Assembly: GCA_041496545.1 (NCBI GenBank)
Contig: JBGQET010000007.1
Coordinates: 5,424 to 69,423 of the forward strand
Direction of reading: 5' to 3'
DNA from: Candidatus Binatia bacterium
GTDB lineage: Bacteria > Desulfobacterota > Binatia > DP-6
DNA: 64,000 nucleotides
The notes under the pieces were generated by a model that made no database searches, was not told where the DNA came from, and worked only from the letters and a program-made list of their open reading frames with translations. The translations under genes and the position numbers were made by a program. Below, one piece after another: positions 4,376 to 26,996 of this stretch. The first letter of the stretch is position 1, and each line of letters begins with the position of its first letter.

Positions 4376-5698
4376 AGCCGAGACGCTCGAGCGCCGCTGC
4401 ATCCTCGCGGTGCGCGAGCACGACGGGCGCGTGCGGGACGCGGTCCGGGGCGGCGGTCGAGCGCAGGTCCCGGTCGAGATAGAAGAGGCAAGCGGCGCGG
4501 AGGTTCGGGCTGTCGGTGCGGAAGCCTGCGAGCGGGCTCCGGTCGCCGGGGGCGAGCACCTCGAGGGCCGGACCGAGCGCTTTCAAGTGCGTTGCGGCGT
4601 GCGTGTGGACGCGGATGGGGAGCACGAGGAGCGCCAGCCCGAGCGCGGCGAACAAGCGCGTCGCGACCTGGGGCACGCGCGCGCGCCAGCCGTCGGGCAG
4701 GACGCGGTCGAGGCCGAGCGCGGTCAGGATGGCGGCGGGCGGGTAGAACTGGTGCAGGTAGCGCGCGCGGCGGCCCTGCGAGAGGTAGAGGAGTGCCAAG
4801 TACCCGCCCGCCCAGCAGAGCACGTAGAGGAGGTTGCGGTCGCGGGCGCGCGCCGCGCGCACGGCGGCGACGACGCCGACGGCGAGGAACGCGACCCACG
4901 GCCAGTCGTCCTTCACGAGGACGCTCAGGTACGACGCCGTCGGCCCGCGCCAGAGCCGTCCCGCGAGCCGGTCGACGACCTGGGTGTGGAAGTAGGTGTT
5001 CAGGAAGGGCTCCCCCCAGTGCACCACCTCGTAGACGTGCCAGGGCAGGCAGACCGCCGCGCCGAGCGCGACCGAGGCGAGAAAGCGCCAGGAGAGGAGG
5101 AGTCCGAGCCGTCGCTCGACGGCGCACCAGATGAGGAACAGGTAGGGGCCCGTCAGCCCGAAGACGCCCTTCGTCATGACCCCGAGACCCCACGCGACGC
5201 CGGCGAGCGCGAAGCCGCGCCCGCCCGCCGCCGCCCCGCGCACGTAGAGCCAGAGCGAGAGGAGGGTGAAGAACGTCACGCCCGAGTCGAGGCGGAAGGT
5301 GGCCGAGTTCCGCACGAAGCGTGGCGTGGTGGCGAGCACCAGCGCCGCGGTCAGCGCGAGCCGCTCGTCCACGAAGCGCCGCGCGAGCTGGAAGAGCACG
5401 ACGCAGGAGAGGACGCCGAAGAGCGCCGAGAAGAGCTTCGCCGCGAACACCGACGGGCCGAGGACGCGGTAGCTGGCGGCCGCGAGCCAGAACATGAGCG
5501 GGGGCTTGTTCCAGTAGTGCGTGTCGCCCAGCCAGAGGTTGAGCCAGTCCCCCGACCTGACGATGCCCTTCGCAACCGCGGCGTAGAGCACCTCGTCGCG
5601 GAAGAGGTCGCCCTCCCAGAGGCGCGCCATCATCGTGACCGCGGCGGCGAAGAGGACGAGCAGCAGGCCGCGGCGGCCGAGGGCGGGCTCGCTCACGG
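4320..5698 (-). CDS. Glycosyltransferase family 39 (ArnT/PMT-like, dolichyl- or undecaprenyl-phosphate sugar transferase)
   Basis: It is polytopic and shows GT39 features (…GDTHYWNKPPLMFWL…). A GTG start at 5698 overlaps the upstream cytochrome c stop by about 4 nt. Confidence 0.75.
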
Positions 5699-9359: not shown

Positions 9360-9407
9360 GCCGACCGACTCCCGGATTGCCGCGCGCGCGCGGCGGAAGG
9401 GGCGCTC

Positions 9408-10334
9408 ATGCGAAATCGGATGGGCGCCGCGGGTGTGCTCGTCGTCTGCCTCGGGGCAGCGACGGCGCACGCTCACGGCGTCGTTGGAGAGCGATCGTTC
9501 ATCGAGCCATTCATCACCGAGGACGTGAACCCGAAGAACGAGTTCGTGATCGCACGACCGGAGTTCGATCATTCCCGCGACGGGAAGGAATTCTCGCTCG
9601 GCTTCGGCCTGGAGAAGAAGATATCGGATCGCTTCAGCCTCACGCTCGACTCGTCGTGGAACGACATCACCCCGAAGGCGGCGGACGAGCCGCACGCCAG
9701 CGGCTTCGGCAACCTCGGCCTCACCCTCAAGTACGCGTTCTTCATCAACCCGGCGCACGAGGCCATCGCCTCGTTCGCGATCGAGTCGACGGCGCCGACC
9801 GGCACCGCCGACGTCGGCGCGGAGCAGCGCGCGTCGTTCAAGCCCTTCGTGCTCTACGGCAAGGGCGCCGGCGACCTGCCGTCGTGCCTCAAGTACCTCC
9901 GCCCGCTCGCCGTGCAGGGCGACGCGGGCTTCGAGATCTCCCTCGACAACGACCGCACCACGACCCTCGTGCACAACGTCGCGATCCAGTACAGCATCCC
10001 GTACCTCCAGTCCGTCGTGCGCGACTTCGGCCTGCGCTGGCCGCTCAACAAACTGCTCCCCGTCGCCGAGTTCAACTTCGAGCACGGCGTGAACGGCGCG
10101 GAGCACGCCGTCCACAAGGTGACCACTACCCCGGGCATCGTCTACATGGACCGCTGGGTCGAGATCGGGATCGCGGGACGCTTCCCGCTCAACACCTCCG
10201 CGCACCGCGACCTCGACTGGGGCGTGATCGGCATCATCGACCTCTTCATCGACGACATCTTCCCGTGGTCCCGGTGGCAACCGATCGGTGGCATGGGGCT
10301 GCCGACGCCACCCGCCAACGAGCCAAAGTCGTGA
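9408..10334 (+). CDS. Secreted or outer-membrane protein, possibly an outer-membrane channel of the phenol-degradation (MetA-pathway) family
   Basis: It has a GGAAGGGG RBS and a signal peptide. Its stop overlaps the copC GTG start (GTGA). Confidence 0.6.
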   Translation: MRNRMGAAGVLVVCLGAATAHAHGVVGERSFIEPFITEDVNPKNEFVIARPEFDHSRDGKEFSLGFGLEKKISDRFSLTLDSSWNDITPKAADEPHASGFGNLGLTLKYAFFINPAHEAIASFAIESTAPTGTADVGAEQRASFKPFVLYGKGAGDLPSCLKYLRPLAVQGDAGFEISLDNDRTTTLVHNVAIQYSIPYLQSVVRDFGLRWPLNKLLPVAEFNFEHGVNGAEHAVHKVTTTPGIVYMDRWVEIGIAGRFPLNTSAHRDLDWGVIGIIDLFIDDIFPWSRWQPIGGMGLPTPPANEPKS

Positions 10335-10693
10335 AGCGCGGCGTCGCGGCGTTCGGTTTTCTCGTGGGTCTGCTCGCGCTCCGGCCGCCCCCGGCCGGAG
10401 CGCACGCCTTCCTCGACCACGCGGAGCCGCGGGTGGGGTCGAGCGTCGCGGCGCCTCCCACCCTGACGCTCGTCTTCACCGAGCCGGTCGAAGCCGGCTT
10501 CTCTCACCTCGCCCTCCGTGCGCCGGACGGCAAGCCGGTCGAGACGCCGGCGCTCGAGCAGCCGGCGCCGAACACGCTGCGTGTTGCGCTGCCGGCGCTC
10601 GCGCCGGGCGAGTACACCGTCGAGTGGGGCGTGGTCTCGGTCGACACGCATCCGACCGACGGCCGCTTCAACTTCTCCGTGAAGAAACCGTGA
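10331..10693 (+). CDS. copC: Copper resistance protein CopC (periplasmic copper chaperone)
   Basis: It has a signal peptide followed by the mature N-terminus HAFLDHAEP and a CopC-like beta-sandwich sequence. It is translationally coupled to both neighbours. Confidence 0.75.
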   Translation: MKRGVAAFGFLVGLLALRPPPAGAHAFLDHAEPRVGSSVAAPPTLTLVFTEPVEAGFSHLALRAPDGKPVETPALEQPAPNTLRVALPALAPGEYTVEWGVVSVDTHPTDGRFNFSVKKP

Positions 10694-11514
10694 ACGCGGC
10701 CTTCACGGTCACCGGCTGGCTCGACCTGGTGGCGACGGTGCTCCTCGCCGGCGGCCTCGTGTTCGCCGCGGCGGTCGCGACGCCCGCGGAAGCCGGCCGG
10801 CGGACGATGCGCGTGGCTGCCGACGCCCTCGCGCCGGTCCTCGTCGCGAGCTTCGCGCTGGTCGGCATCCGGATGCACGAGGTGGCGGGTGGCGAGGGCG
10901 TCGGATTCGTCGGCCGGCTCCTCGCCATGCACTGGGGGCGCTACTGGATCGGCCGCGCCGCCGGCCTCGTCGTGCTGCGCGTCGGGCTCGCGGCGGCGCG
11001 CCCGCGCTGGACCCTCCTCGCCGTCTTCGCCGTGCCGTGGCTCCTCCTGCGGAGCTCCCAGGGGCATGCGGGGGCGCACGGCACGGTGCCCGCGCTCGTC
11101 GACTGGGCGCACCTCGCGGGCGCCGCGGCGTGGCTCGGCGGTCTCGCGCAGATGGCGCTCCTCGCCGACGACGTGCCGGCCGCGGCGCGCCTGCGGCGCC
11201 TCGCGACGGCGGCGCTGGCGCTCGTCGTGCCCGCCGGCGTGTACGCGGCCTTCCTGCACGTCCCGAGCCTCGACCGGCTGCTGCACACGCCCTACGGGCA
11301 GACGCTCCTCGCGAAGCTCGCCCTGGTCGCCGTCCTCTTGACGCTCGGGGCCGCGAACCACTTCCGTCACGTGCCGGCGCTGGTCGCGGGGGACGCCGTT
11401 GCCGCCGTGCGGCTCCGGCGCACGGTGCGGATGGAGCTGGTGCTCGCCGCCGTGATCCTGCTGCTCAGCGCGCTCCTCGGCGTGCTGCCGATGCCGCACG
11501 AGCCGCCCTCGTGA
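10690..11514 (+). CDS. copD: Copper resistance protein CopD (inner-membrane copper transporter)
   Basis: It has eight predicted transmembrane helices with CopD family character. The GTG start overlaps the copC stop. Confidence 0.75.
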   Translation: MNAAFTVTGWLDLVATVLLAGGLVFAAAVATPAEAGRRTMRVAADALAPVLVASFALVGIRMHEVAGGEGVGFVGRLLAMHWGRYWIGRAAGLVVLRVGLAAARPRWTLLAVFAVPWLLLRSSQGHAGAHGTVPALVDWAHLAGAAAWLGGLAQMALLADDVPAAARLRRLATAALALVVPAGVYAAFLHVPSLDRLLHTPYGQTLLAKLALVAVLLTLGAANHFRHVPALVAGDAVAAVRLRRTVRMELVLAAVILLLSALLGVLPMPHEPPS

Positions 11515-11789
11515 GGCGACGCGCGCTTGCCGTCGTCCTGCTCGCGCTCGTCGCCTGCGGGCGCGACGTCGAGTACGTCGGCGCGGGCGAGGTGGTGTCC
11601 GTCGACGAGCCGCGGCTGCACGTGACGATCCGGCACGAGGACATTCCGGGGCTCATGGGCGCGATGACGATGCGCTTCGCGGTCGGCTCGCCCGACGTCC
11701 TGGCCGGCGTCGAGCCGGGGGCGCACGTCCGCTTCCGGTTGCGGCCCGCGGGCGGCGACTACGTCGTGACGCGGGTCGAGGCCCGCTGA
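11511..11789 (+). CDS. CusF-like periplasmic copper-binding lipoprotein
   Basis: It has a lipobox (LALVACG) and an H…M.M.F motif (IRHEDIPGLMGAMTMRF). The GTG start overlaps the copD stop. Confidence 0.65.
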   Translation: MRRRALAVVLLALVACGRDVEYVGAGEVVSVDEPRLHVTIRHEDIPGLMGAMTMRFAVGSPDVLAGVEPGAHVRFRLRPAGGDYVVTRVEAR

Positions 11790-11790
11790 G

Positions 11791-12492
11791 TCAGCGGCGG
11801 CGCAGCGAGTCGATGTACGCCACCAGGTCCCAGAGCTGCGGCGGCTCGAGGGCGTCGGCGTACGACGGCATGGGCGTGCCGTCGAGGCCGGTCACCAGCG
11901 AGCGGTAGACGTCGGCGGGCGCGCCGCCGTTCTTGAAGCGGGTGGGGAGGCGGAGGTCGGCGGGCAGGATGCGGAGCCCCGTCTCGTCCTTGAGCTGCTT
12001 CGCCGAGCCGCCGTCGCCGCGGCCGCGGTCGCCGTGGCAGGACGGGCAGCCGGCGCTCTCGTAGAGGTCGCGGCCGCGCGACGCCGCCGCGGCGTCGAGC
12101 GGCGGCGCCTCGGGGAGGGCGATGGGCGTGGGCGTCGCGCTCGCGAAGCCGGGGTAGAAGCGCTTCACGGCGGTGATCGCGAGGCGGCGCTCGCCCGCCG
12201 TGAGCCCGATGAAGGACGGCATGTAGCCCGGGATGCCGCGCTCGAGGGTGCGCAGGATATCCGCGTCGGTCGGCAATTGCCCGCTCGGCGTCGAGCGGAG
12301 CTTGAAGCGGCCGCGGGTGAAGTCGCGCGGGCGCGGCGACAGGTACTTGTTGATCGAGAAGTACGCGGGCCCGTCGCCGCGCCCGTCCTTGCCGTGGCAC
12401 CACGCGCAGGCGTGGTTGTAGACGGCGGTCGCGTCGTCGGCCGCGACGGCCGGGGCGGCGAGCGCGAGGACGAGGAGGACGGCCGTTCGCAT
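11791..12492 (-). CDS. Di-heme cytochrome c
   Basis: It has a signal peptide and two CxxCH motifs (CAWCH, CPSCH). Confidence 0.8.
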   Translation of the reverse strand: MRTAVLLVLALAAPAVAADDATAVYNHACAWCHGKDGRGDGPAYFSINKYLSPRPRDFTRGRFKLRSTPSGQLPTDADILRTLERGIPGYMPSFIGLTAGERRLAITAVKRFYPGFASATPTPIALPEAPPLDAAAASRGRDLYESAGCPSCHGDRGRGDGGSAKQLKDETGLRILPADLRLPTRFKNGGAPADVYRSLVTGLDGTPMPSYADALEPPQLWDLVAYIDSLRRR

Positions 12493-12494
12493 CG

Positions 12495-14123
12495 TCAGAG
12501 CGCGAAGTCGAAGCCGAGGAAGAGACCGTTCCGCCAGTTGCCGAAGGGGTGGCTGCCGCCCGGCGTGAGGTTGACGCTGTCGCGCAGCGAGAGGCTCAGG
12601 AGGGCGGGGATCGGGACCCTAGCCAGATTGTCGCCCTCGAAGACGTACCAGCGCATCTGGAGGTGCAGCACCTGCGACTGCCGCGGGCCCGGCTCGAAGA
12701 CGACGTCGCTCTTGAAGCCGCCGGCGCTCATCCAGTCGTAGCGCACCGACGGCACGAGCGAGTGCGTGAGGCGGTAGTCCACCTCCGCGGTGAGCCCGTC
12801 GGCGCGTCGCTTGAAGCGCCCGGCGAGGCGCGACGGGACGTTGAAGACCTGGTCGTGCATGTAGGCGCCGTAGGTGTCCCACGGGCCGCGGCGCAGGTTC
12901 CAGCCGACGCCCTGGCGGGAGACATCGAGGTCGCGTTGGTTCGTGATCGTGCCGACGCCGAGCGGCGGTGGCGGGCGGTGCTGCGTGACGGGGCCGCCGA
13001 AGTCGCCGAGCGGGATCGACGGCAGCGGCGCCGGCGAGAGGTAGAACACGCGGTACGCCTCCCAGCCGTAGTTGCCGAGCACGGAGACCGAGCCGGTCAG
13101 GCCGTCGCGGTCGCCGAAGTCCCAGCGCAGCATGCCGTACGGCACGGCGGTGTGCAGCCCGTCGGTGAACTCGGGTGCCGCGCCGGTCGTCGTGCCGAGC
13201 TGGTAGAGGAGGTGGGAGGCGAAGAGGCGGCCGTGGAGGTCGAGGCCGGGCGCGGCCTCGGCGTGGTAGAGGGTCGGCTCGGTGGCGAGGAGCGTGTGGT
13301 CGCCGCGCTTGAAGATGCCGAAGAACTTGGCGCCGAAGGCGTAGGGGTTGAGCGGCATGCGGAGGAGGAAGCCGGACTCCGAGGTATCGGCCGGCACGTC
13401 GTGGAAGAGCTGGCGGTCGACGGCGTAGGAGAAGTTGGTCGAGGGGTCGATGCGACCGAACATGATCATGGGGCCGTGACCGACGAGGCCGTCGCCCATG
13501 GTCGCCATGCCGTGCCCGCCGTGGTCCATGTCTCCCATGTCGTGGCCCATCTGCTCGTGGTCCATGTGGGCCATGTCGTGTCCGCCGTGGCCGTGGAGGC
13601 CGAGCAGCATGGGGACGTCGACCATGACGAACGCCTTCTGCATGCCGCCCGTGTTGCTGTTCACGAAGTCGCCGCGCTTGTTGATGTCGGTCTCGTGGAC
13701 GGTGTGCTCGAGCTCGATGAAGAGGCTCGTCGAGGGCGTGAGCGGACCCGCGATGTAGACGCTCGTGTGCTCGGGGACGGCGAAGCCGCCCCGCGAGCCC
13801 GGCGCGTCGTCGAACTGCGAGCGCTCGAACCACTCGCCCCGCGTCCAGATCGCCATGCCCTTGGTGAGCGCGTCCTTCCACGTCGACGGGAACGGCGTCC
13901 ACATCGTGCCCGGCGGCTTGAAGCCGTTCATGTGGAACTCCTCGCCGTAGGCGTTGAGGCGCGGAACGGCGGAGTGGCAGACCCCGCAGGCGAGGTTGTA
14001 GCGACGGGCGAAGGCGGGTAGCGCCGCCGCCGAACGCGCCGTGACGAGGAGAGCGACAAGAGCGAGCAGGCGGCGCGCGAGCATCGGTCGCGCCCGTATA
14101 CCGGCCCGTGCCCCCGGGCTCAA
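12495..14123 (-). CDS. Secreted CxxCH-containing protein with a Met/His-rich copper-binding-like region and a beta-barrel-like C-terminus
   Basis: It has a signal peptide, a CGVCH motif and the tract HGHGGHDMAHMDHEQMGHDMGDMDHGGHGM. The C-terminus is rich in aromatic/Gly strands. Confidence 0.7.
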   Translation of the reverse strand: MSPGARAGIRARPMLARRLLALVALLVTARSAAALPAFARRYNLACGVCHSAVPRLNAYGEEFHMNGFKPPGTMWTPFPSTWKDALTKGMAIWTRGEWFERSQFDDAPGSRGGFAVPEHTSVYIAGPLTPSTSLFIELEHTVHETDINKRGDFVNSNTGGMQKAFVMVDVPMLLGLHGHGGHDMAHMDHEQMGHDMGDMDHGGHGMATMGDGLVGHGPMIMFGRIDPSTNFSYAVDRQLFHDVPADTSESGFLLRMPLNPYAFGAKFFGIFKRGDHTLLATEPTLYHAEAAPGLDLHGRLFASHLLYQLGTTTGAAPEFTDGLHTAVPYGMLRWDFGDRDGLTGSVSVLGNYGWEAYRVFYLSPAPLPSIPLGDFGGPVTQHRPPPPLGVGTITNQRDLDVSRQGVGWNLRRGPWDTYGAYMHDQVFNVPSRLAGRFKRRADGLTAEVDYRLTHSLVPSVRYDWMSAGGFKSDVVFEPGPRQSQVLHLQMRWYVFEGDNLARVPIPALLSLSLRDSVNLTPGGSHPFGNWRNGLFLGFDFAL

Positions 14124-14238
14124 TCCTCAGAGCCGCCGGCCGGGGAGCCCGTGCCCGACCATCACCGCCGATCGGCTCGGTCGTGCGGAGCGGCCGTCCG
14201 CTGTCAGCGCGACGCGCGAGTACGCTAGACTCCGTCGC

Positions 14239-14898
14239 GTGGAGGCGACCTTCTGCTTCGTCGATCTCGCCGGCTTCACGGCCCTGACGGAAGCGCACGG
14301 GGATCAGGCGGCGGCGGACCTCGCGCTCGCCTTCGGCAGGCTCGTCGAGCAGGCGCTCCAGGGAGCGGGCCAGGTCGTCGACACCGTCGGAGACGCCGTG
14401 TTCGTGGTGGCCGAGCGGCCGGCGGAAGCGGTGCGGTTCGTCGGCCGGCTCTTCGACCGAGCAGCGACGGAGCCCGATTTCCCCGCCCTCCGTGTCGGCC
14501 TGCACCACGGCGAGGCGGTGGTGCGGAACGACCGGTACTTCGGCACCTCGGTGAACCTTGCGGCACGCGTCGCGTCGCAGGCCGGCGGGGACGAGATCCT
14601 CGCCACCCGCGGGGTCGCGGAGGCGGCACGAGCGGTCGGGATCGACGCCACGTCCCGCGGCACCGTCGCGCTCCGGAACATCCTCGAGCCCGTCGAGCTC
14701 TTCGTCCTGGCGATCGGACGGTTCCCCGAAACCGTGATCGACCCGGTCTGCCGCATGCGCGTGGAGCGGAACGGGGCCGCCGGCCGCCTGCGCTTCCAGG
14801 GCACGGAGTACTTCTTCTGCTCGCTCGACTGCACGGCGCGCTTCGCCGCCCGCCCCGCGGCGTACGCGGCGGGCGAGGCGCCGGCCTCCAGGTCTTGA
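14239..14898 (+). CDS. Nucleotidyl cyclase (class III cyclase homology domain) fused to a C-terminal YHS/TRASH metal-binding domain
   Basis: The cyclase part reads FCFVDLAGFTALTE…TVGDAVFVV…GLHHGEAV…FGTSVNLAARV. The C-terminus reads DPVCRMRV…YFFCSLDC. The start is uncertain, and the GTG at 14239 is the best candidate. Confidence 0.65.
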   Translation: MEATFCFVDLAGFTALTEAHGDQAAADLALAFGRLVEQALQGAGQVVDTVGDAVFVVAERPAEAVRFVGRLFDRAATEPDFPALRVGLHHGEAVVRNDRYFGTSVNLAARVASQAGGDEILATRGVAEAARAVGIDATSRGTVALRNILEPVELFVLAIGRFPETVIDPVCRMRVERNGAAGRLRFQGTEYFFCSLDCTARFAARPAAYAAGEAPASRS

Positions 14899-14971
14899 CG
14901 TCGAGCGCGTCCTCCGCGAGATACGGGCACGGTTATTGGATGCCCAGCTAGCAAGCCAAGGAGGGGAACGC

Positions 14972-15334
14972 ATGACGAGGAGAAAGATCAGGACGCTCGC
15001 GCTGGTCGCCGTGATGGCGACCGGCTTGGCCCTGCCCAACTTCCGGGCAGCCGTTGCCGATGAAATGAACATCGAGCAGCGAATCTCCACCGCGAAGACG
15101 GCCGCGGATCACGAAGCCATCGCCGCGTACTACGAGGAGCAGGCGAAGGCGGCGCGCGCGAAGGGCGAGGAGCACAAGCGGATGTCGGCCGATTACAGGA
15201 AGGCCGGCGGTTCCATGGCGAAGAGCCAGCTGCCCGAGCATTGCAACGGTCTGGCGGTGATCTACAGCGGTGCCGCGAAGCAGTACGACGCCCTCGCTGC
15301 GATGCATCGTAAGATGGCCAAAGCGGCGAAGTAG
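14972..15334 (+). CDS. Small secreted hypothetical protein
   Basis: An AAGGAGGGG RBS precedes the start, and a signal peptide is present (RTLALVAVMATGLALP). Confidence 0.55.
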   Translation: MTRRKIRTLALVAVMATGLALPNFRAAVADEMNIEQRISTAKTAADHEAIAAYYEEQAKAARAKGEEHKRMSADYRKAGGSMAKSQLPEHCNGLAVIYSGAAKQYDALAAMHRKMAKAAK

Positions 15335-15521
15335 GCGCGGCACTGCCGAGGTCGCGGGCCGTGAGGCGGCGACCCCGGACGGGATACCCCCGGGGTCCGT
15401 TCGCTCGGTCGCCCGTGGGAACCGGTCTGCGTCTGCCTTCTCAGTAATGGGAACGCCGGCTGCGGAGACGCACTCTTTGCCTCGGGCACGGTTTGTGCCA
15501 AATGGGCGAAGCGAGGATTGC

Positions 15522-15944
15522 ATGTCCGCGCTCACTCGGATGTTCCGCCGCTCGCGCACCTTGGTGGCGCTCCTCCTCGGCGTCTTGGTGCCGTACGTGT
15601 CGACTCGCTGCCTCCCCGGCTGCACGGTCGTGCACGGCGCCGCCGCGCATCATCATGCAGCGGTGACGCACGAGCGAGGCGGGGTGCATCGGCATGCGGC
15701 CCACGATGCCGAGCGTCCCGCGGATGCGGGGCATGACCACGACCAGCCGAGCTGCTGCCAAGTCACCGGAAAGCTCGCCGTCACGGTCCCGTCTCCCGCC
15801 GCAGGCATGGCGGGCCCGCTGCTGCGACCGGCCCTCCGGGTCGCGCCGACAGGACGTCTCTCAGCCGGCCGCACGCTCCCCCCGCCAGAATTCCTCGCGC
15901 ACGGTCCACCCGTCTACCTCCTCCACGCGACTCTCGTGATCTGA
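15522..15944 (+). CDS. His-rich exported protein upstream of the efflux operon, putative metal-binding
   Basis: It has a signal peptide and then AAHHHAAVTHERGGVHRHAAHDAERPADAGHDHD…CC. Confidence 0.5.
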   Translation: MSALTRMFRRSRTLVALLLGVLVPYVSTRCLPGCTVVHGAAAHHHAAVTHERGGVHRHAAHDAERPADAGHDHDQPSCCQVTGKLAVTVPSPAAGMAGPLLRPALRVAPTGRLSAGRTLPPPEFLAHGPPVYLLHATLVI

Positions 15945-16085
15945 TCCCCCGCCGCGCCCACCCGTGGAACGAGGTGGCGATGCGCCTGCGAGCCACCGGC
16001 GCTCCTCGGGGAGGGTCGTCGCGCCGGCGCCCATGCGGGCGTCTGCCCCCGACCGTGCGAACGGCAGGCGAGGGATGGGAGAGAC

Positions 16086-17426
16086 ATGAGGGCCAGGAGA
16101 TCGGAGACACGCGAGGTGCCGGCGAGCCGGCTCCGCCCGCTCCACGTCGGCAAGCGGCCGGCGCTCGTCGTCTGTGCGCTCGCGTGCATGACCGCGAGCG
16201 CGACGCGCCTCGCGCGCGCGGAGGAGGGGCGCCCGACGCTCGCGTCGCTGCTCGAGACCGCGCGGGTCCAGAACGCCGAGATCCGGGCGGCGGAGGCGCG
16301 CTACCAGGCGATGCGCCAGCGTCCCGTCCAGGAGCGCACGCTGCCCGACCCGACCATCGGCGCCCGGTATCACAACGAGAAGACGGACCGCCTCACGCTC
16401 GGTGAGTCCGACTTCTCGTTCCTCGAGTTCTCCGCCGAGCAGGAGGTGCCGTTCCCCGGCAAGCTCGGGCTCCGCGGCGACGTCGCGGCGCGCGAGGCCG
16501 ATCGTGAACGGGCGATGCGTGACGAGACCGTCCTCATGGTCCTCGCCAAGGTCGCGGGCGGCTACGCCGACCTGGCGGCCGTGGACCGCACCAGGACCGC
16601 ACTCGAGCAGAGCGCCGCTACCCTCGACCTCATGGTGCGGCAGGCGGGCGAGAGCTACGGCGTCGGCACGGTGGCGCAGGCCGACGTCCTCCGCGCGACG
16701 CTCGAACGCGCCGCGATCGAGGAGCGGCTCACCATGCTCACCCAGAAGCGGGTCGCCGCCGAAGCGACGCTGAACGTGCTGCTGGCGCGCCCGGCGGCCG
16801 AGCGCGTCGGGCCCGTCGCGCTGCCGGCGACGGTGCCGCCCCTCGAGACGCTGGAGGCCTGGGGGCGGCGCGTTCAGGACGAGGCGCCCGCCGTGCGGGC
16901 GGCACGCGAGGACGTGCTCCGGGCCGGCGCCGCGCTGAAGCTCGCCGAGCGCGAGTACTTTCCCGACTTCGCGCTGATGGGCGGATACACCGATAAGAGT
17001 CGGCTCTTGCCGGAGTGGGAATTCGGCGTTCGCGTGCGTGTTCCGCTCTACTTCTGGCGGCGCCAGGGCCCGGCGGTCGCCGAAGCCGTCCACAACCGGA
17101 CGGCGGCCGAGGAGACGCGCCGGAACACCGCGCTCACGCTCGACGGCCGCCTCCGCGAGCTGCACGCCATGGCCGAGTCCGGGCAGCGGCTCGTCGCGCT
17201 CTACCGCGACACGCTCATCCCGCAGGCGTCGCTCACGCTCGAGTCGACGCGCGCCTCCTACGTAGTCGGCCGCGTCGATTTCCTGACCATGCTGACCGCG
17301 TTCACGAGCCTCCTCGAGTACCGCATTCGGTACGCGGAGACGATGGGGAGCCTCTACCGCGCCCGCGCCGAGATCGGGCCGCTCGTCGGCGAGAGCCCAC
17401 TCGACTGGTGGAAGGAGTCGCCGTGA
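16086..17426 (+). CDS. cusC: TolC-family outer-membrane efflux protein (CusC-like)
   Basis: It has outer-membrane factor coiled-coil repeats. Its stop overlaps the start of the next gene. Confidence 0.8.
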   Translation: MRARRSETREVPASRLRPLHVGKRPALVVCALACMTASATRLARAEEGRPTLASLLETARVQNAEIRAAEARYQAMRQRPVQERTLPDPTIGARYHNEKTDRLTLGESDFSFLEFSAEQEVPFPGKLGLRGDVAAREADRERAMRDETVLMVLAKVAGGYADLAAVDRTRTALEQSAATLDLMVRQAGESYGVGTVAQADVLRATLERAAIEERLTMLTQKRVAAEATLNVLLARPAAERVGPVALPATVPPLETLEAWGRRVQDEAPAVRAAREDVLRAGAALKLAEREYFPDFALMGGYTDKSRLLPEWEFGVRVRVPLYFWRRQGPAVAEAVHNRTAAEETRRNTALTLDGRLRELHAMAESGQRLVALYRDTLIPQASLTLESTRASYVVGRVDFLTMLTAFTSLLEYRIRYAETMGSLYRARAEIGPLVGESPLDWWKESP

Positions 17427-18544
17427 TGCGCACGCTCGCGACGGTGATTCTGGCCGGCGCCGTCACGTGCGCGGCCGCGGCGGAGATCCCGTCGCACGGG
17501 GCGCACGCGGCGCACGAGGGCGCGCAGGTGGCGGTCCCCGGGATGGCCGAGGTCGAGGTGCCCGTCGAGCGCCGGCAGGCGATCGGGGTGCGGACGGCGG
17601 AGGTTGCCCGGCGCACGCTCACGCAGGGCGTTCGCACCGTGGGTCTCGTCGCCGCGGACGAGCGCCGCGTGCGCCGCATCCAGACGAAGGTCTCCGGATG
17701 GGTCGACGAGCTGCTCGTCGCCTACACCGGCGCGCTCGTGAAGGCGGGCGAGCCCATCCTCTCGATCTACAGCCCGGAGCTGGTCGCCGCGCAGCGTGAG
17801 TATCTCCTCGCCCGCCGGGCGGGTGGAGCCGCCGGGGGCTCGAGCGGCCTGCTCGTGCAGTCGGCGCGGATGCGGCTCAGGAACTGGGACCTGACCGACG
17901 CGCAGATCGAGGCGCTCGGGAGGAGCGGGGAGCCGAGGCGCTCGGTCGTCCTCCACTCGCCCATCGCCGGCTACGTGACGCTCAAGCCGGTGACGCAGGG
18001 CATGTACGTGACGCCCGAGATGGAGCTCTACCGCATCACCGACCTCGACGCCGTCTGGATCTGGGCCGATCTCTACGAGAGCGAGATCGAGCTCGTGGCG
18101 ATCGGGCAGACGGCGGCGATCTCGCTCGCGTCGGCTCCCGGACGCACCTTCACCGCCGTGGTGGCGTACGTGAGCCCCACGATGGAGCCCGCCACCCGCA
18201 CGCTCCGCGTGCGCTTCGACATCGACAACCGTGGCCACCCCCTCAAGCCGGGCATGTACGCGACCGTCGTCCTCGAAGCGCCGCTCGGCGAGGTGCTCGC
18301 GCTCCCGGAAGAAGCCGTCATCGACACGGGCGAGCGTCGCGTGGTCTTCGTCGAGACGGCGCCGGGCCGCTTCCAGCCACGCGAGGTCGAGCTCGGCCGC
18401 ACGGGCGAGGGCCACTACGAGGTGCTCGGCGGCCTCGAGGCGGGCGAGCGGGTGGTGGTGAGCGCGCAGTTCCTGCTCGACTCCGAGAGCCGGCTCCGCG
18501 CCGCCGGCCGCGGCCCGGCGCACGCGGGGCACGGAGGCCAGTGA
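17426..18544 (+). CDS. cusB: RND efflux membrane fusion protein (CusB-like)
   Basis: It has the periplasmic adaptor architecture (beta-barrel and lipoyl-like regions). Confidence 0.8.
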   Translation: MRTLATVILAGAVTCAAAAEIPSHGAHAAHEGAQVAVPGMAEVEVPVERRQAIGVRTAEVARRTLTQGVRTVGLVAADERRVRRIQTKVSGWVDELLVAYTGALVKAGEPILSIYSPELVAAQREYLLARRAGGAAGGSSGLLVQSARMRLRNWDLTDAQIEALGRSGEPRRSVVLHSPIAGYVTLKPVTQGMYVTPEMELYRITDLDAVWIWADLYESEIELVAIGQTAAISLASAPGRTFTAVVAYVSPTMEPATRTLRVRFDIDNRGHPLKPGMYATVVLEAPLGEVLALPEEAVIDTGERRVVFVETAPGRFQPREVELGRTGEGHYEVLGGLEAGERVVVSAQFLLDSESRLRAAGRGPAHAGHGGQ

Positions 18545-18548
18545 GGCG

Positions 18549-21500
18549 ATGGAACGGCTGATCGAGTTCTGCGGCCGCCGGCGCGCGCTCGTCTTCCTGG
18601 CGACGGGCCTCTTCGTAGCGTGGGGCGTCTGGGCCATTCGGCGGACGCCCGTCGACGCCCTGCCCGACCTCTCCGACACGCAGGTCATCGTCTTCACCGA
18701 GTGGATGGGCCGCAGCCCGAACCTCGTCGAGGACCAGATCACTTACCCGATCGTCACCACCTTCCTCGCCGCGCCCCACGTGAAGGTCGTCCGCGGCTTC
18801 ACGATGTTCGGCATGTCCTTCGTCTACATCGTCTTCGAGGACGGGACGGACATCTACTGGGCGCGGAGCCGAACGCTCGAGTACCTCGTGAAGCTCCAGG
18901 GACGCCTCCCGCCCGGCGTCACGCCCCAGATCGGGCCCGATGCGACCGGCCTCGGCTGGGTCTTCGAGTACGCGCTGGTCGACGACACCGGCCAGCACGA
19001 CCTCCAGCAGCTCCGGAGCTTCCAGGACTGGTACCTCCGGTACTGGCTCTCCTCCGTCCCGGGCGTCGCCGAGGTCGCCGGCGTCGGCGGGTACGAGAAG
19101 GAATACCAGATCGAGCTCGACCCGGTGCGGCTCCAGGCCTTCAACGTGTCGATCGGCGACATCGTGCAGGCCGTGCGGATGTCGAACGGCGACGTCGGCG
19201 GGCGGGTGATCGAGCTGGCGGAGCACGAGTACGCCGTGCGCGGCCGCGGCTACATCCAGTCCCGCGACGACCTGGCGAGCATCGCGGTCACGACGAACGC
19301 GGCCGGCACGCCGGTCCGGCTCGGCGACCTGGCGCGGATCCAGGTCGGCGGGGCGATCCGCCGCGGTTTCGCCGAGCTGGACGGACTCGGCGAGACGGTG
19401 GGCGGGATCGTCGTCATGCGCTTCGGCGAGAACGCGCTCGACGTGATCGAGCGGGTGAAGGCGAAGCTCGAGGAGATGAAGGCCGCCTTCCCGCCGGGCG
19501 TCCGGATCGTCACCACGTACGACCGCTCGGATCTCATCCGCGCCTCGGTGGCGACGCTCCGCGACAACCTCGTGCAGGTCATGGTCGTCGTGTGTCTCAC
19601 CGTCGTCGTCTTCCTCTTCCACGTGCGCTCCGCGCTCGTCCCGGCGATCACGCTGCCGGTCGCCGTCGTCCTCTCGTTCATCCCGATGGCCTACATGGGC
19701 CTCACCACCAACATCATGTCGCTGGCGGGGATCATCATCGCGGTCGGCGACATGGTCGACGCGGCCGTCGTGCTGGTGGAGAACGCCCACAAACGCCTCG
19801 AGCACGCGGGCCCCGACGCCGACCGCACGGCGGTCGTGATCGGCGCCGCCAAGGAGCTCGGCCCGCCGATCTTCGGGTCGCTCCTCGTCATCACGATTGC
19901 CTTCCTCCCGGTCTTCACGCTCCAGGCGCAGGAGGGCCGGCTCTTCAAGCCGCTCGCGTACACGAAGACCTTCTCGATGGCGTTCGCCTCCGTGCTCTCG
20001 GTGACGCTCGTCCCCGCGCTCATGGTGACCTTCGTGCGCGGCCGCATCCGCCCGGAGCGGGAGAACCCCGTGAACCGGGCCGTCATGGCCGCCTATCGGC
20101 CCGTGCTGCGCTTCTGCCTCGAGCGGCGGCGGCTCCTGATCGCGGCCGTCGTGCTCGCGCTCGGCGTCACGGTGGTGCCGTTCTTTCGGCTGGGCTCGGA
20201 GTTCATGCCGCCGCTCTACGAGGGTTCGCTTCTGTTCATGCCGATCACCGTCCCGGGCATCTCGATCGAGGAGGCGAAGCGCCTCGTCCAGGAGCAGGAC
20301 CGCCGGCTGAAGGAGTTCCCGGAGGTGGAGACGGTCTTCGGCAAGGCAGGCCGCGCCGAGACGCCGACCGACCCGGCGCCGCTCTCGATGATCGAGACCG
20401 TGGTGGCGTTGAAGCCGCGCACGGCGTGGCGGCCGGGCATGACGTGGGAGCGGCTCGTCCGCGAGATGGACGCCGCCGTCGCCATGCCGGGGCTCCAGGC
20501 GGCGTGGACGATGCCGATCAAGGCGCGGGTCGACATGCTGACGACCGGCATCCGCACGCCCGTCGGCGTCAAGGTCTTCGGCCCCGACCTCGAGGAGATC
20601 GCCCGCGTCGGCGAGTCGCTCGAGAACATCCTGCGCGACGTGCCCGGCACGCGATCGGTGTACGCGGAGCGGGAGCTCGGCGGCTTCTTCATCGACTTCG
20701 TCCCGGACCGGGCCGCGATCGCGCGCTACGGGCTTCGCCTGATGGACGTCATGAACGTCGTCGAGACGGCGATCGGAGGGCTCGACATCGACACCACCAT
20801 CGAGGGCCGCGAGCGCTACCGGGTGAATGTCCGCTACCCGCGCGAGCTGCGCGACACGCCCGAGGAGCTGGCGCGCGTGCTCGTGCCCATTCCCGCGCAG
20901 TCGGGCGGGCTCGGGCCCGCGAACGAAGGTCCCATGGACGGGACGCCGCGTCCCGGCGCCGACGCCATGAGCGGGGGACGCGTCGCGCACGTCCGCCTCG
21001 GGCAGCTCGGCCGGATCACCGCCGCCATGGGCCCCCCGATGATCAAGGACGAGGGCGGGTCGCTCACCGGCTGGGTCTACGTGGACACGTCGCGCAGCGA
21101 CCTCGGCGGCTACGTCGCGGAGGCGAAGCGCGCCGTCGCGCGTGAGCTCCGGCTGAAGCCCGGCTACTACCTCCGCTGGACGGGCACCTACGAGTTCCTC
21201 GAGCGGATGCAGGCGCGGATGCGGATCGTGATCCCGCTCACGGTGGGGATCATCCTGGCGATCCTCTTCGTGAACTTCGGCGGGCTCGCGCAGGCGCTGC
21301 TCGTGCTGTTCTCGGTGCCCTGCGCGGCGATGGGCTCGATCTGGCTCCTGTGGCTCCTTGGCTTCAATACGTCGGTGGCCGTGTGGGTCGGCATGATCGC
21401 GCTCCTCGGCGTTGCGGCCGAGACCGCCTCGATCATGGTGATCTACCTCGACGAGGGCTACGCGCGCTGGCAGGCCGACGGCCGCATCCACACCACGCGC

Positions 21501-21752
21501 GACCTGATCGAGATGGCGATGGAGTCCGCGGTGCTCCGCGTCCGTCCGCTCCTCATGACCGTCGCGATGAACATCTTCGGGCTCATCCCGGTCATGTTCG
21601 ACACCGGCATCGGCTCCGACGTCGCGAAGCGGATCGCCGCGCCGCTCTGGGGTGGCCTCGTCTCGCTCACGCTGCTGACGCTCGCCGTGATCCCGGCCCT
21701 GTACGTGATTTGGCGCGAGCGGCAGCTCCGCCACGCGGAGGCACGGCCGTGA
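18549..21752 (+). CDS. cusA: Heavy-metal efflux RND transporter, CusA/CzcA family
   Basis: It is 1067 aa. The N-terminal 400 aa are collinear with and very similar to E. coli CusA (…PVDALPDLSD.QVI…GPDATG.GW.FEYALVD…). Confidence 0.9.
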   Translation: MERLIEFCGRRRALVFLATGLFVAWGVWAIRRTPVDALPDLSDTQVIVFTEWMGRSPNLVEDQITYPIVTTFLAAPHVKVVRGFTMFGMSFVYIVFEDGTDIYWARSRTLEYLVKLQGRLPPGVTPQIGPDATGLGWVFEYALVDDTGQHDLQQLRSFQDWYLRYWLSSVPGVAEVAGVGGYEKEYQIELDPVRLQAFNVSIGDIVQAVRMSNGDVGGRVIELAEHEYAVRGRGYIQSRDDLASIAVTTNAAGTPVRLGDLARIQVGGAIRRGFAELDGLGETVGGIVVMRFGENALDVIERVKAKLEEMKAAFPPGVRIVTTYDRSDLIRASVATLRDNLVQVMVVVCLTVVVFLFHVRSALVPAITLPVAVVLSFIPMAYMGLTTNIMSLAGIIIAVGDMVDAAVVLVENAHKRLEHAGPDADRTAVVIGAAKELGPPIFGSLLVITIAFLPVFTLQAQEGRLFKPLAYTKTFSMAFASVLSVTLVPALMVTFVRGRIRPERENPVNRAVMAAYRPVLRFCLERRRLLIAAVVLALGVTVVPFFRLGSEFMPPLYEGSLLFMPITVPGISIEEAKRLVQEQDRRLKEFPEVETVFGKAGRAETPTDPAPLSMIETVVALKPRTAWRPGMTWERLVREMDAAVAMPGLQAAWTMPIKARVDMLTTGIRTPVGVKVFGPDLEEIARVGESLENILRDVPGTRSVYAERELGGFFIDFVPDRAAIARYGLRLMDVMNVVETAIGGLDIDTTIEGRERYRVNVRYPRELRDTPEELARVLVPIPAQSGGLGPANEGPMDGTPRPGADAMSGGRVAHVRLGQLGRITAAMGPPMIKDEGGSLTGWVYVDTSRSDLGGYVAEAKRAVARELRLKPGYYLRWTGTYEFLERMQARMRIVIPLTVGIILAILFVNFGGLAQALLVLFSVPCAAMGSIWLLWLLGFNTSVAVWVGMIALLGVAAETASIMVIYLDEGYARWQADGRIHTTRDLIEMAMESAVLRVRPLLMTVAMNIFGLIPVMFDTGIGSDVAKRIAAPLWGGLVSLTLLTLAVIPALYVIWRERQLRHAEARP

Positions 21753-24484
21753 CGACCGACACGCGCTGGCACGCGAAGGTCCCCGCCGACATCGCGCGCG
21801 AGCTTGGCACCGACCTCGTGCGCGGTCTCGACCCGGCGGAAGCGGCGGGCCGCCTCGCGCGCGACGGCCGCAACGAGCTCGAGCGCGGCGAGGCCGCCTC
21901 GCCGTGGTCGAGCTTCGTGGGGCAGTTCAAGAGCCTCGTCATCTGGGTCCTCATCGGGGCGGCCGTCATCTCGGGGCTGCTCGGTGAAGCCGTCGACGCG
22001 GGGGCGATCCTCGCCATCGTGGTGCTGAACGCGCTCATCGGCTTCGCCCAAGAGTACCGCGCCGAGCGCGCCGTCGCCGCGCTCGCGCGGCTGGCGGCGC
22101 CGCGGGCGCGCGTGCTTCGGGGCGGGCACGCGGCCGTCGTTCCCGCCGCCGAGATCGTGCGCGGCGACGTCCTCGTCCTCGACGCTGGCGATCTCGTGGG
22201 CGCGGATGCACGCCTCTTCGACGCCTCGGCGCTTCGCACGACGGAGGCGCCGCTCACCGGTGAGTCCGAGCCGGTGGACAAGCAGACCACTCCATGCCCT
22301 CCCGGGACCGCGCTCGCCGATCGGCGGAACATGGTCTTCCTCGGCACGAGCGTGGCGGGCGGCTCCGGCCGTGCGGTGGTGGTGGCGACGGGGATGGCGA
22401 CCGAAGTCGGACGCATCGCCTCGCTGCTCGAGACCGCGTCGAGCGGGGAGACGCCGCTCCAGCGCAAGCTCGACCAGGTCGGCCGGCGCCTGCTGTGGGC
22501 CTGCCTCGGCATCGTCGTGGTCGTCTTCCTGCTGGGGGCGCTGCGCGGCATCGCCCTCGGGGAGATGTTTCTCGGCGCGGTGAGCCTCGCCGTGGCCGCC
22601 ATCCCCGAGGGCCTGCCTGCCGTGGTGACGATCGCGCTCGCCGTCGGCGTGTCACGCATGGCCCGTCGCAACGCGCTCGTCCGCCGGCTGCCGTCGGTCG
22701 AGACGCTCGGCTGCGCGCAGGTGATCTGCACGGACAAGACGGGGACCCTGACCGTGGGCGAGATGACCGTCCGGCGGATCGTGACGGCCGAGCGGGTGGT
22801 CGCGGTCACGGGGGAGGGCTACGCGACCGAGGGGGGTTTCTTCCAGGACGGTGTCGCGATCGACCCGACCGGCGCGGCCGTGACGCGCGCGCTCCTGGAG
22901 GCCGCCGCAGCGTGTAACGATGCGGAGCTCGTGCGGCGCGACGGCCGCGTCGGCATCGTCGGCGACCCGACCGAGGCCGCGCTCCTGGTCGCGGCGGCGA
23001 AGGCCGGCATTGGCCGCGACAGCATCGAGACGGCGATGCCGAGGTTGGGCTCGATCCCCTTCGACTCCGACCGGAAGCGGATGACGGTGATCCGTCGCCG
23101 GGACGGCGTGCCGTGGGCGTTCGTCAAGGGCGCGCCCGAGGTGCTCCTCGAGCGCTGCACCGCCGTGCGGACGGAGCAGGGCGCGGAATCGTTGCGCGAG
23201 GTGGACCGGGCGCGCATGACCGAGGCGGCGGCGCTCATGGCGAACGAGGCCCTCCGCGTCCTCGCGCTTGCCGAGCGGCGGCTTCCCGGCGAGCCTCGTG
23301 CGGGCGCCGCCGACGAGGTTGAGCGCGACCTGGTCCTCCTCGGCCTGGTCGGTCTGCAGGACCCGCCGCGTGCCGAGGCGCTCGAGGCCGTCCGGAAGTG
23401 CAAGCGCGCGGGCATCCGCACGGTGATGATCACCGGCGACCATCCCGAGACCGCCCGCGCCATCGCACGCGAGCTCGAGATCCTGGAGCGCGGCGACGAG
23501 GCGATCGTCGGCCACGAGCTCGATGAGCTGTCGGACGCGCAGCTCGCCGAGCGCGTCGGTCGCGCTTCGGTGTACGCGCGCGTGACGGCCGAGCACAAGC
23601 TGCGGATCGTGCGTGCATGGAAGGCGAAGGGTGCCGTGGTCGCGATGACGGGCGACGGCGTGAACGACGCGCCGGCGCTGAAGGAGGCCTCGATCGGGAT
23701 CGCCATGGGCATCGCGGGCACCGAGGTCACCAAGGAAGCCGCGGACATGGTGATCACGGACGACAACTTCGCCTCGATCGTCGCCGCCGTCGAGGAGGGC
23801 CGCGGCATCTACGACAACATCGCCAAGACGCTCGCCTACCTGCTCGCCGGGAATGCCGGCGAGCTGCTCGTCACCCTGCTGGCCGTGCTCGTCGGCTGGC
23901 CGTTCCCGCTCCTCCCCATCCAGCTTCTCTGGATCAACCTCGTGACGGACGGCCTGCCGGCGCTCGCTCTCGCGACGGACCCGATCGACCCCGAGGTGCT
24001 GTCCCGGCCGCCACGGCGTCCCGAGGCGCAGCTCATGGACCGGCGCTTCCTCGGGCGGCTCGCCCTCACCGGGATTCTCACCGCCGCCGTCGCACTCGTC
24101 GGCTTCGCCTACGAGTATCGCATCGACCGCAACGTGATGGACGCGAGGAATGCGGCCTTCTCGGTGCTGGTGATCGCGGAGCTCCTGCGCTCCTTCGGCG
24201 CCCGGAGCGAGACCCGGACGGTCTGGGAGCTGGGGCTGCTGTCGAACGCGCGCCTCTTCGCCATCGTGGCCGTGAGCTTCGGCCTGCAGCTGACGATTCA
24301 CCACACGCCCGGGCTCGAAGTCGTGTTCGGGACGGAGCCGATCTCGCTCGGGCAGTGCGTCGCCTGGATCGCGCTCGGCGCGGTGCCGTCGATCCTGCTC
24401 GAGGGAATGAAGATCGTGGGCGCGCGCGGCTGGATCGACCCGGGCGCCGCGACAGCGCTCGGCGGCCGCCAGGGGGCGCGATGA
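21749..24484 (+). CDS. P2-type (SERCA/PMCA-like) cation-transporting P-type ATPase
   Basis: It has ICTDKTGTLT, the PEGLPAVVTIALAVG helix-4 motif (not CPC), TGDGVNDAPAL and MITGD. The GTG start overlaps the cusA stop. Confidence 0.85.
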   Translation: MTTDTRWHAKVPADIARELGTDLVRGLDPAEAAGRLARDGRNELERGEAASPWSSFVGQFKSLVIWVLIGAAVISGLLGEAVDAGAILAIVVLNALIGFAQEYRAERAVAALARLAAPRARVLRGGHAAVVPAAEIVRGDVLVLDAGDLVGADARLFDASALRTTEAPLTGESEPVDKQTTPCPPGTALADRRNMVFLGTSVAGGSGRAVVVATGMATEVGRIASLLETASSGETPLQRKLDQVGRRLLWACLGIVVVVFLLGALRGIALGEMFLGAVSLAVAAIPEGLPAVVTIALAVGVSRMARRNALVRRLPSVETLGCAQVICTDKTGTLTVGEMTVRRIVTAERVVAVTGEGYATEGGFFQDGVAIDPTGAAVTRALLEAAAACNDAELVRRDGRVGIVGDPTEAALLVAAAKAGIGRDSIETAMPRLGSIPFDSDRKRMTVIRRRDGVPWAFVKGAPEVLLERCTAVRTEQGAESLREVDRARMTEAAALMANEALRVLALAERRLPGEPRAGAADEVERDLVLLGLVGLQDPPRAEALEAVRKCKRAGIRTVMITGDHPETARAIARELEILERGDEAIVGHELDELSDAQLAERVGRASVYARVTAEHKLRIVRAWKAKGAVVAMTGDGVNDAPALKEASIGIAMGIAGTEVTKEAADMVITDDNFASIVAAVEEGRGIYDNIAKTLAYLLAGNAGELLVTLLAVLVGWPFPLLPIQLLWINLVTDGLPALALATDPIDPEVLSRPPRRPEAQLMDRRFLGRLALTGILTAAVALVGFAYEYRIDRNVMDARNAAFSVLVIAELLRSFGARSETRTVWELGLLSNARLFAIVAVSFGLQLTIHHTPGLEVVFGTEPISLGQCVAWIALGAVPSILLEGMKIVGARGWIDPGAATALGGRQGAR

Positions 24485-26899: not shown

Positions 26900-26996
26900 C
26901 AAGCACCCGGCGGGCCACCCGGGAGGGCTCTATTCGATGAAAGGCCGATGCAACGAGCCGCGCGGCCAAAAGCGCGGCGGCAGGAGGAACACGACG

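Follow-up and report, generated by a model that had tools for sequence, protein, structure and literature searches.

One gene in a 64,000-nucleotide stretch of DNA from a Candidatus Binatia bacterium (assembly GCA_041496545.1, contig JBGQET010000007.1, positions 5,424 to 69,423 of the forward strand), which we refer to as the window, encodes a protein in which a class III nucleotidyl cyclase domain is followed by a YHS domain. We propose that this protein, cyclase-YHS, is a class IIIc nucleotidyl cyclase of the cytoplasm whose activity is controlled by its C-terminal YHS metal-sensor domain, and that it is probably activated by copper in the way described for the M. phlei enzyme MpAC. Judged from the alignments, the catalytic and metal-sensor residues are all kept apart from the pair that recognises the base, where Asp48 and Arg99 stand in place of the Lys/Asp pair of adenylyl cyclases. 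The gene lies within a segment of about 18 kb (window positions 9400 to 27400) that we term the copper island; the coordinates of all features discussed are collected in Table 1.

A class IIIc cyclase domain fused to a YHS domain

The original prediction, which was made from the sequence alone, described a minimal class III cyclase joined to a YHS/TRASH domain, and most of this description was upheld. The open reading frame (ORF) and all of the peptide motifs that it quoted are present in the sequence, and both Pfam domains exceed their curated thresholds, the cyclase domain (Guanylate_cyc, PF00211) spanning residues 3 to 147 with an E value of 3.6e-11 and 43.4 bits against a cut-off of 21.9. 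The C-terminus passed the check with the YHS hidden Markov model (HMM), while the TRASH model stayed below threshold at 14 bits. The nearest solved sequences by profile match are class IIIc cyclases, namely, the catalytic domain of Rv1264 (E value of 9e-30) and Ma1120 (2e-23). An AlphaFold2 monomer model (predicted local distance difference test score of 91.3, predicted template modelling score of 0.83) superposes on Ma1120 at 1.5 to 1.7 Å over about 160 residues, with a target TM-score of about 0.9, and matches Ma1120, Rv1264, and Rv1900c with a probability of 1.00. The dimerisation arm between the fourth and fifth strands is short, and its alignment to that of Rv1264, the class IIIc prototype, is gapless. 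All of the best matches, in sequence and in structure, are class IIIc enzymes, and we assign the window protein to this subclass as a predicted nucleotidyl cyclase. It has no signal peptide, and its N-terminus opens straight into the first beta-strand.

Conservation was counted in 199 aligned family sequences. The original prediction had named the catalytic Asp, Asn, and Arg residues as the ones on which it would stand or fall; both metal-binding Asp residues (Asp9 and Asp52) and the transition-state-stabilising pair (Asn106 and Arg110) are present and are invariant in all of these relatives. The putative copper ligands of the YHS domain are equally well kept: Asp168, Cys194, and Cys198 are found in 199/199 sequences and Cys171 in 198/199, and the gap from Cys to Cys is 22 residues in 197 of 198. 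Their spacing is that of D178, C181, C204, and C208, the proposed ligands of MpAC, offset by 10 residues (PMC4626032).

MpAC is a 233-residue enzyme from Mycobacterium (Mycolicibacterium) phlei (EID14989.1) in which 8 linker residues separate a class IIIc domain from the YHS domain at the C-terminus (PMC4626032; Linder 2015, PLoS One). It is an adenylyl cyclase that is inactive with Mg2+ alone and is turned on by 1 to 10 μM Cu2+; its isolated catalytic domain shows no activation by copper (PMC4626032). The proposal that the window gene is a candidate copper-responsive source of a cyclic nucleotide is thus backed by a protein of the same architecture that is biochemically Cu2+ activated. Our comparison with MpAC was made through the residue numbering in the text of that paper and through mycobacterial relatives from our genome scan. 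The fusion of a cyclase homology domain (CHD) to a YHS domain has already been published and annotated and is therefore not new; about 26 CHD-YHS sequences were known in 2015, and their physiological role was left open (PMC4626032). A search by title phrase found no follow-up to that study.

A large and widespread family

A homology search returned 3,701 homologues of the window protein. The best 120 of them are 206 to 268 amino acids long, and 95 of these carry both the YHS and the cyclase Pfam records and 1 carries neither; several homologues bear the Joint Genome Institute name "class 3 adenylate cyclase/YHS domain-containing protein." When 1.84 billion cluster representatives were searched exhaustively with a profile, 506 clusters, defined at 50% identity, matched at an E value of ≤1e-30, and a scan of one genome per species found relatives in 374 genomes, mostly from Binatia, Myxococcota, Betaproteobacteria, and Actinomycetota, including Mycobacterium. 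With an architecture and a ligand set that match those of MpAC, the window protein is a predicted member of the CHD-YHS copper-sensor type.

Some longer representatives (P0448, P0457, P0473, P0482, P0483, P0497, P0505, and P0507; approximately 440 to 460 residues) carry an extra N-terminal domain of about 230 residues, and in these the CHD-YHS unit makes up the last 215 or so.

A non-canonical pair at the base-reading positions

At the two positions that specify adenine, the Lys/Asp pair of strict adenylyl cyclases is absent from the window protein, and we therefore file it as a nucleotidyl cyclase and not as an adenylyl cyclase. Nor does it have the pair of the guanylate cyclases among the enzymes surveyed in PMC4215837, in which the first position is Glu and the second is small or polar (C, S, T, H, A, or G); it has Asp and Arg instead, an acid plus a donor whose resemblance to the guanylate cyclase pattern is an analogy only. 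As Asp48 and Arg99 replace Lys/Asp, the product is not safely cyclic AMP (cAMP), and cyclic GMP (cGMP) or a mixed specificity is a live possibility. By hydrogen-bond logic, Asp48 could accept from N1-H and N2-H of guanine and Arg99 could donate to O6; an acid plus a hydrogen-bond donor would fit guanine better than adenine. The original prediction had called the gene a candidate cAMP or cGMP source, and a candidate cyclic-nucleotide source it still is, but the non-canonical pair had been missed.

The pair varies throughout the family. Position 48 is K in 85 of the 199 sequences, D in 75, S in 18, and E in 13, and position 99 is D in 84, R in 80, and S in 19; as pairs, K/D occurs in 84, D/R in 56, D/S in 14, S/R in 12, and E/R in 11, with a few others. 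In a redundancy-reduced set of 141 full-length cluster representatives, K/D accounts for 114 (81%), and the remainder include E/R (6), E/S (4), D/R (2), E/G, E/H, and D/S. The family thus includes textbook guanylate cyclase pairs together with a larger acid-plus-Arg group to which the window protein belongs. A neighbour-joining tree, built without support values, needs at least 13 changes of pair class, which suggests repeated switching more than a single origin of the Asp/Arg state.

Could the window protein nevertheless be another copper-activated adenylyl cyclase that makes cAMP like MpAC, with Asp48/Arg99 a neutral, charge-compensated swap? We regard this as a substantial possibility, though a minority one. 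The two positions do change together as a charge swap (K/D in 84 sequences versus D/R in 56), which resembles the preservation of a salt bridge, and in the neighbour-joining tree the D/R mini-clade of the window protein nests among K/D sequences, members of which reach 62 to 63% identity to it. The class IIIc enzymes Rv1900c (Asn/Asp) and Rv0386 (Gln/Asn) still make cAMP, a tolerance of non-canonical pairs that supports such a reading. Residual guanylate cyclase activity is seen in wild-type Ma1120, which has K/D, and the pair therefore does not determine the substrate absolutely (PMC4215837). With the charges swapped, however, donor and acceptor would face the wrong atoms of adenine (N1 is an acceptor and N6 a donor) unless the base flips, and the same family contains E/S, E/G, and E/H, pairs that are listed for guanylate cyclases. 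The positions that co-vary most with the pair (95, 100, 103, 49, and 55) flank it and line the pocket, which suggests that the pocket has been remodelled and speaks against a neutral swap; the measure is, however, confounded by common descent.

Copper genes near cyclase-YHS loci

We sampled 80 other cyclase-YHS loci at the species level and clustered the ORFs within 7 kb of the cyclase gene. About 25 of the 80 loci have a strictly copper-related gene (P1B ATPase, multicopper oxidase, CsoR-like repressor, or Cus system of the resistance-nodulation-division [RND] type) within this distance, the chance expectation being, roughly, a few percent. The recurrent neighbours are P1B copper ATPases with their own N-terminal YHS domain (11 loci), multicopper oxidases (8), CsoR-like repressors (6), and ArsR (5). 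All three informative members of the window's clade, the window protein included, adjoin a cusCBA-type RND system, with gene order varying: a locus with a 96%-identical cyclase (L082) has the gene order of the window, and in one with 68% identity (L081) the cyclase gene lies 84 bp after cusA (cusB-cusA-cyclase). In another Binatia locus (L024), the cyclase gene is followed by a multicopper oxidase gene and then by cusCBA.

A fixed operon with cus was rejected as a general rule: a Cus/RND system lies within 10 kb in only 6 of the 80 loci, and three other Asp/Arg members, on long contigs, have unrelated neighbours. The cus link is limited to the window's clade and several Binatia loci and may be lineage specific. 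Since most loci have no copper gene nearby, cyclase-YHS is usually a stand-alone unit; it is self-contained and often, but not obligatorily, found beside copper genes. We also observed that a gene for an ATP-binding cassette transporter ATPase with a C-terminal YHS domain adjoins cyclase-YHS in 10 of the 80 loci (e.g., at 11770 to 12621 in L017).

It is unlikely, in our estimation, that the YHS domain senses another thiophilic metal (Zn, Cd, Ag, or Fe) or thiol oxidation, or that it is a structural, zinc-ribbon-like cap, but there is evidence on both sides. Cus-type RND systems also export Ag(I). Two other YHS fusions encoded in the window, on a patatin-like phospholipase and on a SLOG protein, are found as adjacent genes in a locus without any copper gene and without a cyclase gene (L086, 10001 to 12953), and the P-type ATPase encoded beside them in the window is of the Ca2+ type and not a copper pump. 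YHS/TRASH domains bind Cd in ribosomal protein L24e and are metal free in the crystal of toluene-4-monooxygenase (reviewed in PMC4626032). On the other hand, Zn2+, Fe2+, Fe3+, Cr3+, Co2+, and Ni2+ did not activate MpAC, and quenching with ethylenediaminetetraacetic acid reverses the effect of copper, which argues against oxidation (PMC4626032). The invariance or near invariance of the four ligands and the copper-specific nature of the recurrent neighbours likewise favour copper as the input.

The copper island and its other YHS proteins

The neighbours given in the original prediction were all found (Table 1): the genes for a Met/His-rich protein and a cytochrome c lie upstream and divergent, and cusCBA lies downstream. 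Between the cyclase gene and cusC there are two small ORFs, both of which are retained in L082. In the Met/His-rich protein, which presumably resembles Cyt572-type outer-membrane cytochromes, a CGVCH (CxxCH, heme-binding) motif follows directly on the signal peptide, and the insert rich in Met and His reads HGHGGHDMAHMDHEQMGHDMGDMDHGGHGM. Among the cytoplasmic proteins encoded in the copper island, cyclase-YHS alone is predicted to sense a metal and to signal; about 55 genes, essentially all of those in the 64 kb, were surveyed with Pfam, and no copper regulator of the CueR/MerR, CsoR, or CusRS type was found. Close relatives of the window proteins are annotated as Candidatus Binatia.

TABLE 1 Coordinates of features in the window
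Feature	Position	Strand	Basis
Cyclase-YHS gene, 219 amino acids, GTG start, TGA stop	14239-14898	+	ORF list and sequence
-10-like hexamer TAGACT, ends 7 nucleotides ahead of GTG	14226-14231	+	Read from sequence
Cyclase homology domain, Pfam envelope residues 3-147; modelled fold runs to about residue 158 (nucleotide 14712)	14245-14679	+	PF00211
Asp9, first catalytic metal-binding Asp (Rv1264 D222)	14263-14265	+	Invariant, 199/199
Asp48, position of adenine-specifying Lys (Rv1264 K261, Ma1120 K101)	14380-14382	+	HMM alignment
Asp52, second catalytic metal-binding Asp (Rv1264 D265)	14392-14394	+	Invariant, 199/199
Arg99, position of adenine-specifying Asp (Rv1264 D312, Ma1120 D157)	14533-14535	+	HMM alignment
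Asn106...Arg110 (NLAAR), transition-state-stabilising pair (Rv1264 N319, R323)	14554-14568	+	Both invariant, 199/199
YHS domain, residues 166-211	14734-14871	+	PF04945, E value 1.5e-10, 41.4 bits (cut-off 30.3)
Asp168, putative copper ligand	14740-14742	+	
Cys171, putative copper ligand	14749-14751	+	
Cys194, putative copper ligand	14818-14820	+	
Cys198, putative copper ligand	14830-14832	+	
copC	10331-10693	+	PF04234
copD	10690-11514	+	PF05425
cusF-like	11511-11789	+	PF11604
Dihaem cytochrome c, co-directional with Met/His-rich gene, upstream of and divergent from cyclase	11791-12492	-	PF13442, PF00034
Secreted Met/His-rich protein, 529 amino acids, divergent from cyclase	12495-14084	-	No Pfam/NCBIfam match
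Two small ORFs between cyclase and cusC: 120 amino acids, secreted; 140 amino acids, His-rich, DUF2946-like	14972-15944	+	
cusC, heavy-metal RND efflux system	16086-17426	+	cusC/cusB matches PF02321, PF16576
cusB, heavy-metal RND efflux system	17423-18544	+	cusC/cusB matches PF02321, PF16576
cusA	18549-21752	+	TIGR00914 (CusA/CzcA), 1072 bits
P-type ATPase, type IIA (PMR1/SERCA-like, Ca2+ type), not copper P1B	21749-24484	+	
Patatin-like phospholipase with C-terminal YHS (patatin-YHS)	24481-25581	+	PF01734, PF04945
SLOG cluster4/TIGR00725 (LOG-like) protein with C-terminal YHS (SLOG-YHS)	25965-26726	+	PF18306, PF04945
Secreted protein with two YHS-like repeats	26937-27407	+	PF04945, 65.9 bits, two stretches

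The P-type ATPase scores 700 bits with TIGR01522 and 655 bits with TIGR01116, both below the equivalog cut-offs, versus 154 bits with the copper-type TIGR01511. The start of its gene overlaps the stop of cusA, and its stop overlaps the start of the patatin-YHS gene.

The patatin-YHS and SLOG-YHS genes, which the original prediction had joined to the cyclase in a shared metal-sensing logic, are real, but the link to the cyclase comes down to their co-location in this genome. Neither occurs within 10 kb of the cyclase gene in any of the 80 other loci, and with their own adjacent pairing in the copper-free locus they were rejected as partners of the cyclase. Both belong to large, strongly conserved families. 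Patatin-YHS has 889 homologues, the best 120 of which (57 to 100% identity) all have the patatin domain and all but one also the YHS domain; for SLOG-YHS there are 4,881, and 118 of the best 120 (70 to 100% identity) have the same two-domain record. The non-identical top matches of the two proteins, at 57 to 79% identity, come from Binatia, "Deltaproteobacteria," and, for SLOG-YHS only, metagenome-assembled genomes of planctomycetes. Patatin-YHS and SLOG-YHS are a conserved gene pair. These fusions show that YHS is in wide use as a C-terminal module of enzymes; they do not demonstrate that the two proteins form one system with the cyclase. A literature search found no paper on patatin-YHS. In a contig of a public metagenome-assembled genome (L083; GCA_041492335.1, JBGPWT010000025.1), patatin-YHS is 100% identical to that of the window, and the gene order is the same from approximately position 21.5 kb of the window onward.

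Patatin phospholipases and SLOG-type domains are typical effector and sensor modules of cyclic-nucleotide defence systems, so the cyclase might be imagined to work in phage defence or in some other cyclic-nucleotide system outside homeostasis, for instance as a Pycsar-like pyrimidine cyclase whose effectors are the patatin and SLOG proteins. We consider this very improbable and rejected a Pycsar/CBASS-type system: the PADLOC matches (PycC, 17 bits, E value of 7e-4 over 57 residues; phospholipase effector, 26 bits; PsyrA, 17 bits) are all marginal and cover generic core motifs only, the patatin and SLOG proteins carry YHS and not cyclic-nucleotide sensor domains, their genes lie about 10 kb away, beyond cusCBA and the ATPase gene, and no Pycsar-type effector is adjacent.

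Outside the island, the last 400 residues of a 1,034-residue ORF on the reverse strand (1298 to 4402) contain a cytochrome P450 domain, whereas the roughly 600 N-terminal residues have no Pfam match; in this 72% G+C sequence, the long N-terminus may be a miscalled start.

Start codon and upstream region of the cyclase gene

The start codon had been flagged as uncertain. A 96%-identical homologue, also of 219 amino acids, uses the same start as the GTG at 14239, which places the first beta-strand motif after exactly four residues, as in 85 of 121 called proteins (the window protein and 120 listed homologues); an independent codon-position score also chose this GTG. As the homologue start, the N-terminal lengths, and the codon-position score agree, we take it to be the start. 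No Shine-Dalgarno sequence was seen before it. Given this and the position of the -10-like hexamer TAGACT, it is possible that the transcript is leaderless. A consensus promoter scan of the intergenic region (14085 to 14238) gave no match, and the only close relative, L082, is 97% identical there in DNA, which makes conservation uninformative. One short palindrome was found (14089 to 14108); which start codon the divergent gene uses decides whether the palindrome falls inside the 5' end of that gene or close to it. A terminator-like match at 14234 to 14249 overlaps the start codon and was taken as chance, and no riboswitch or other RNA element was found in the whole window (zero Rfam matches).

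Proposed mechanism and what it could mean

Class III cyclases act as head-to-tail dimers of two copies. In the mechanism that we propose for cyclase-YHS, Asp9 and Asp52 of one chain would hold the two catalytic Mg2+/Mn2+ ions, while Asn106 and Arg110 of the other chain, with its base-recognising residues 48 and 99, would complete each active site. By analogy with MpAC, copper bound to Asp168, Cys171, Cys194, and Cys198 would bring the catalytic dimer out of its inactive form and into the active one, so that a rise in cytoplasmic copper would be turned into a cyclic-nucleotide signal; the gene for the receptor of this signal would lie elsewhere in the genome. The signal plausibly feeds copper tolerance in this lineage, as cusCBA belongs to the co-directional array that the cyclase gene heads.

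Several observations weigh against this proposal. The metal in the MpAC experiments was Cu2+, supplied in vitro, but the copper of the cytoplasm is Cu(I). For the window protein, activation by copper is an extrapolation from one enzyme, and not from an especially close one; L070, the nearest relative fetched from Mycolicibacterium, shares 47% identity and has the canonical Lys/Asp pair. About 55 of the 80 loci have no recognisable copper gene nearby, the three Asp/Arg members on long contigs have unrelated neighbours, and the Pfam survey of the 64 kb found no cyclic-nucleotide-binding (PF00027) or GAF receptor. Finally, we found no characterised precedent for an Asp/Arg pair, and Arg is absent from the second-position residues of guanylate cyclases in PMC4215837.

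A bolder extension is that the Asp/Arg, Glu/Arg, Ser/Arg, and Glu/Ser branches are copper-activated guanylate or other non-adenine cyclases, which would provide copper-to-cGMP signalling in Binatia-like bacteria and many Betaproteobacteria, and that here the enzyme is the island's only copper sensor and controls efflux through a receptor encoded elsewhere. We offer this tentatively and think it rather doubtful as a whole. What our analysis adds to the 2015 study is a large and widespread family (374 species genomes, and about 500 clusters when grouped at 50% identity), its repeated siting beside copper efflux and detoxification genes, which makes a role in copper homeostasis testable, and the replacement of the adenine-specifying pair in about a fifth of the clusters, including that of the window protein. 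If the variants make cGMP, they would be a case of rare bacterial cGMP signalling with a defined input and would also offer a small switch from copper to a cyclic nucleotide that can be genetically encoded; should cAMP still be their product, the window protein is an ordinary extra member of a known family. What makes it worth following is the variant pair, together with how large the family is and the copper-efflux setting of the gene.

Comparison with known systems

Among solved class IIIc enzymes, Rv1264 and Ma1120 have the same short dimerisation arm as the window protein, and both carry Lys/Asp at the base-reading pair, unlike Asp48/Arg99. Rv1264, an adenylyl cyclase of M. tuberculosis, is regulated by an N-terminal pH-sensing domain (PDB 1y10/1y11), where the window protein has a C-terminal YHS domain instead. 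Ma1120, a minimal class IIIc enzyme from M. avium (PDB 4wp3 and others), has no YHS domain and has Ala164 where the window protein retains the transition-state Asn.

Class III guanylate cyclases, such as Cya2 of Synechocystis (Glu/Gly; PDB 2w01) and the eukaryotic enzymes (Glu/Cys), share with the window protein an acid at the position of the Lys, and other CHD-YHS family members carry E/S, E/G, and E/H, pairs listed for guanylate cyclases. However, the acid of these enzymes is Glu and that of the window protein is Asp, accompanied by an Arg that lies outside the residues listed for known guanylate cyclases; Cya2 has a specificity-aiding Tyr where the window protein keeps Ala109. In sequence and fold, the window protein is much nearer to the class IIIc adenylyl cyclases than to guanylate cyclases.

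The N-terminal YHS/TRASH domain of copper P1B-type ATPases is the same small Asp/Cys-Cys-Cys domain as that of the window protein. There it sits on a transporter, with copper binding undemonstrated (PMC4626032), whereas here it sits on a predicted signalling enzyme.

MpAC remains the closest counterpart in design. Both proteins are cytoplasmic and have no domains besides a single class IIIc domain and a single YHS domain at the C-terminus, which a short linker connects (233 residues in MpAC versus 219 in the window protein). They share both metal-binding Asp residues, the Asn/Arg pair, and the Asp-x-x-Cys...Cys-x-x-x-Cys pattern of the YHS domain with identical spacing. All six canonical residues, including Lys/Asp, are present in MpAC, whereas the window protein has Asp48/Arg99, and copper activation has been measured for MpAC and would hold for the window protein by analogy. 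The physiological context of MpAC was left open; the window gene, in contrast, is the first of an array that includes cusCBA, and this array lies in a cop/cus island.

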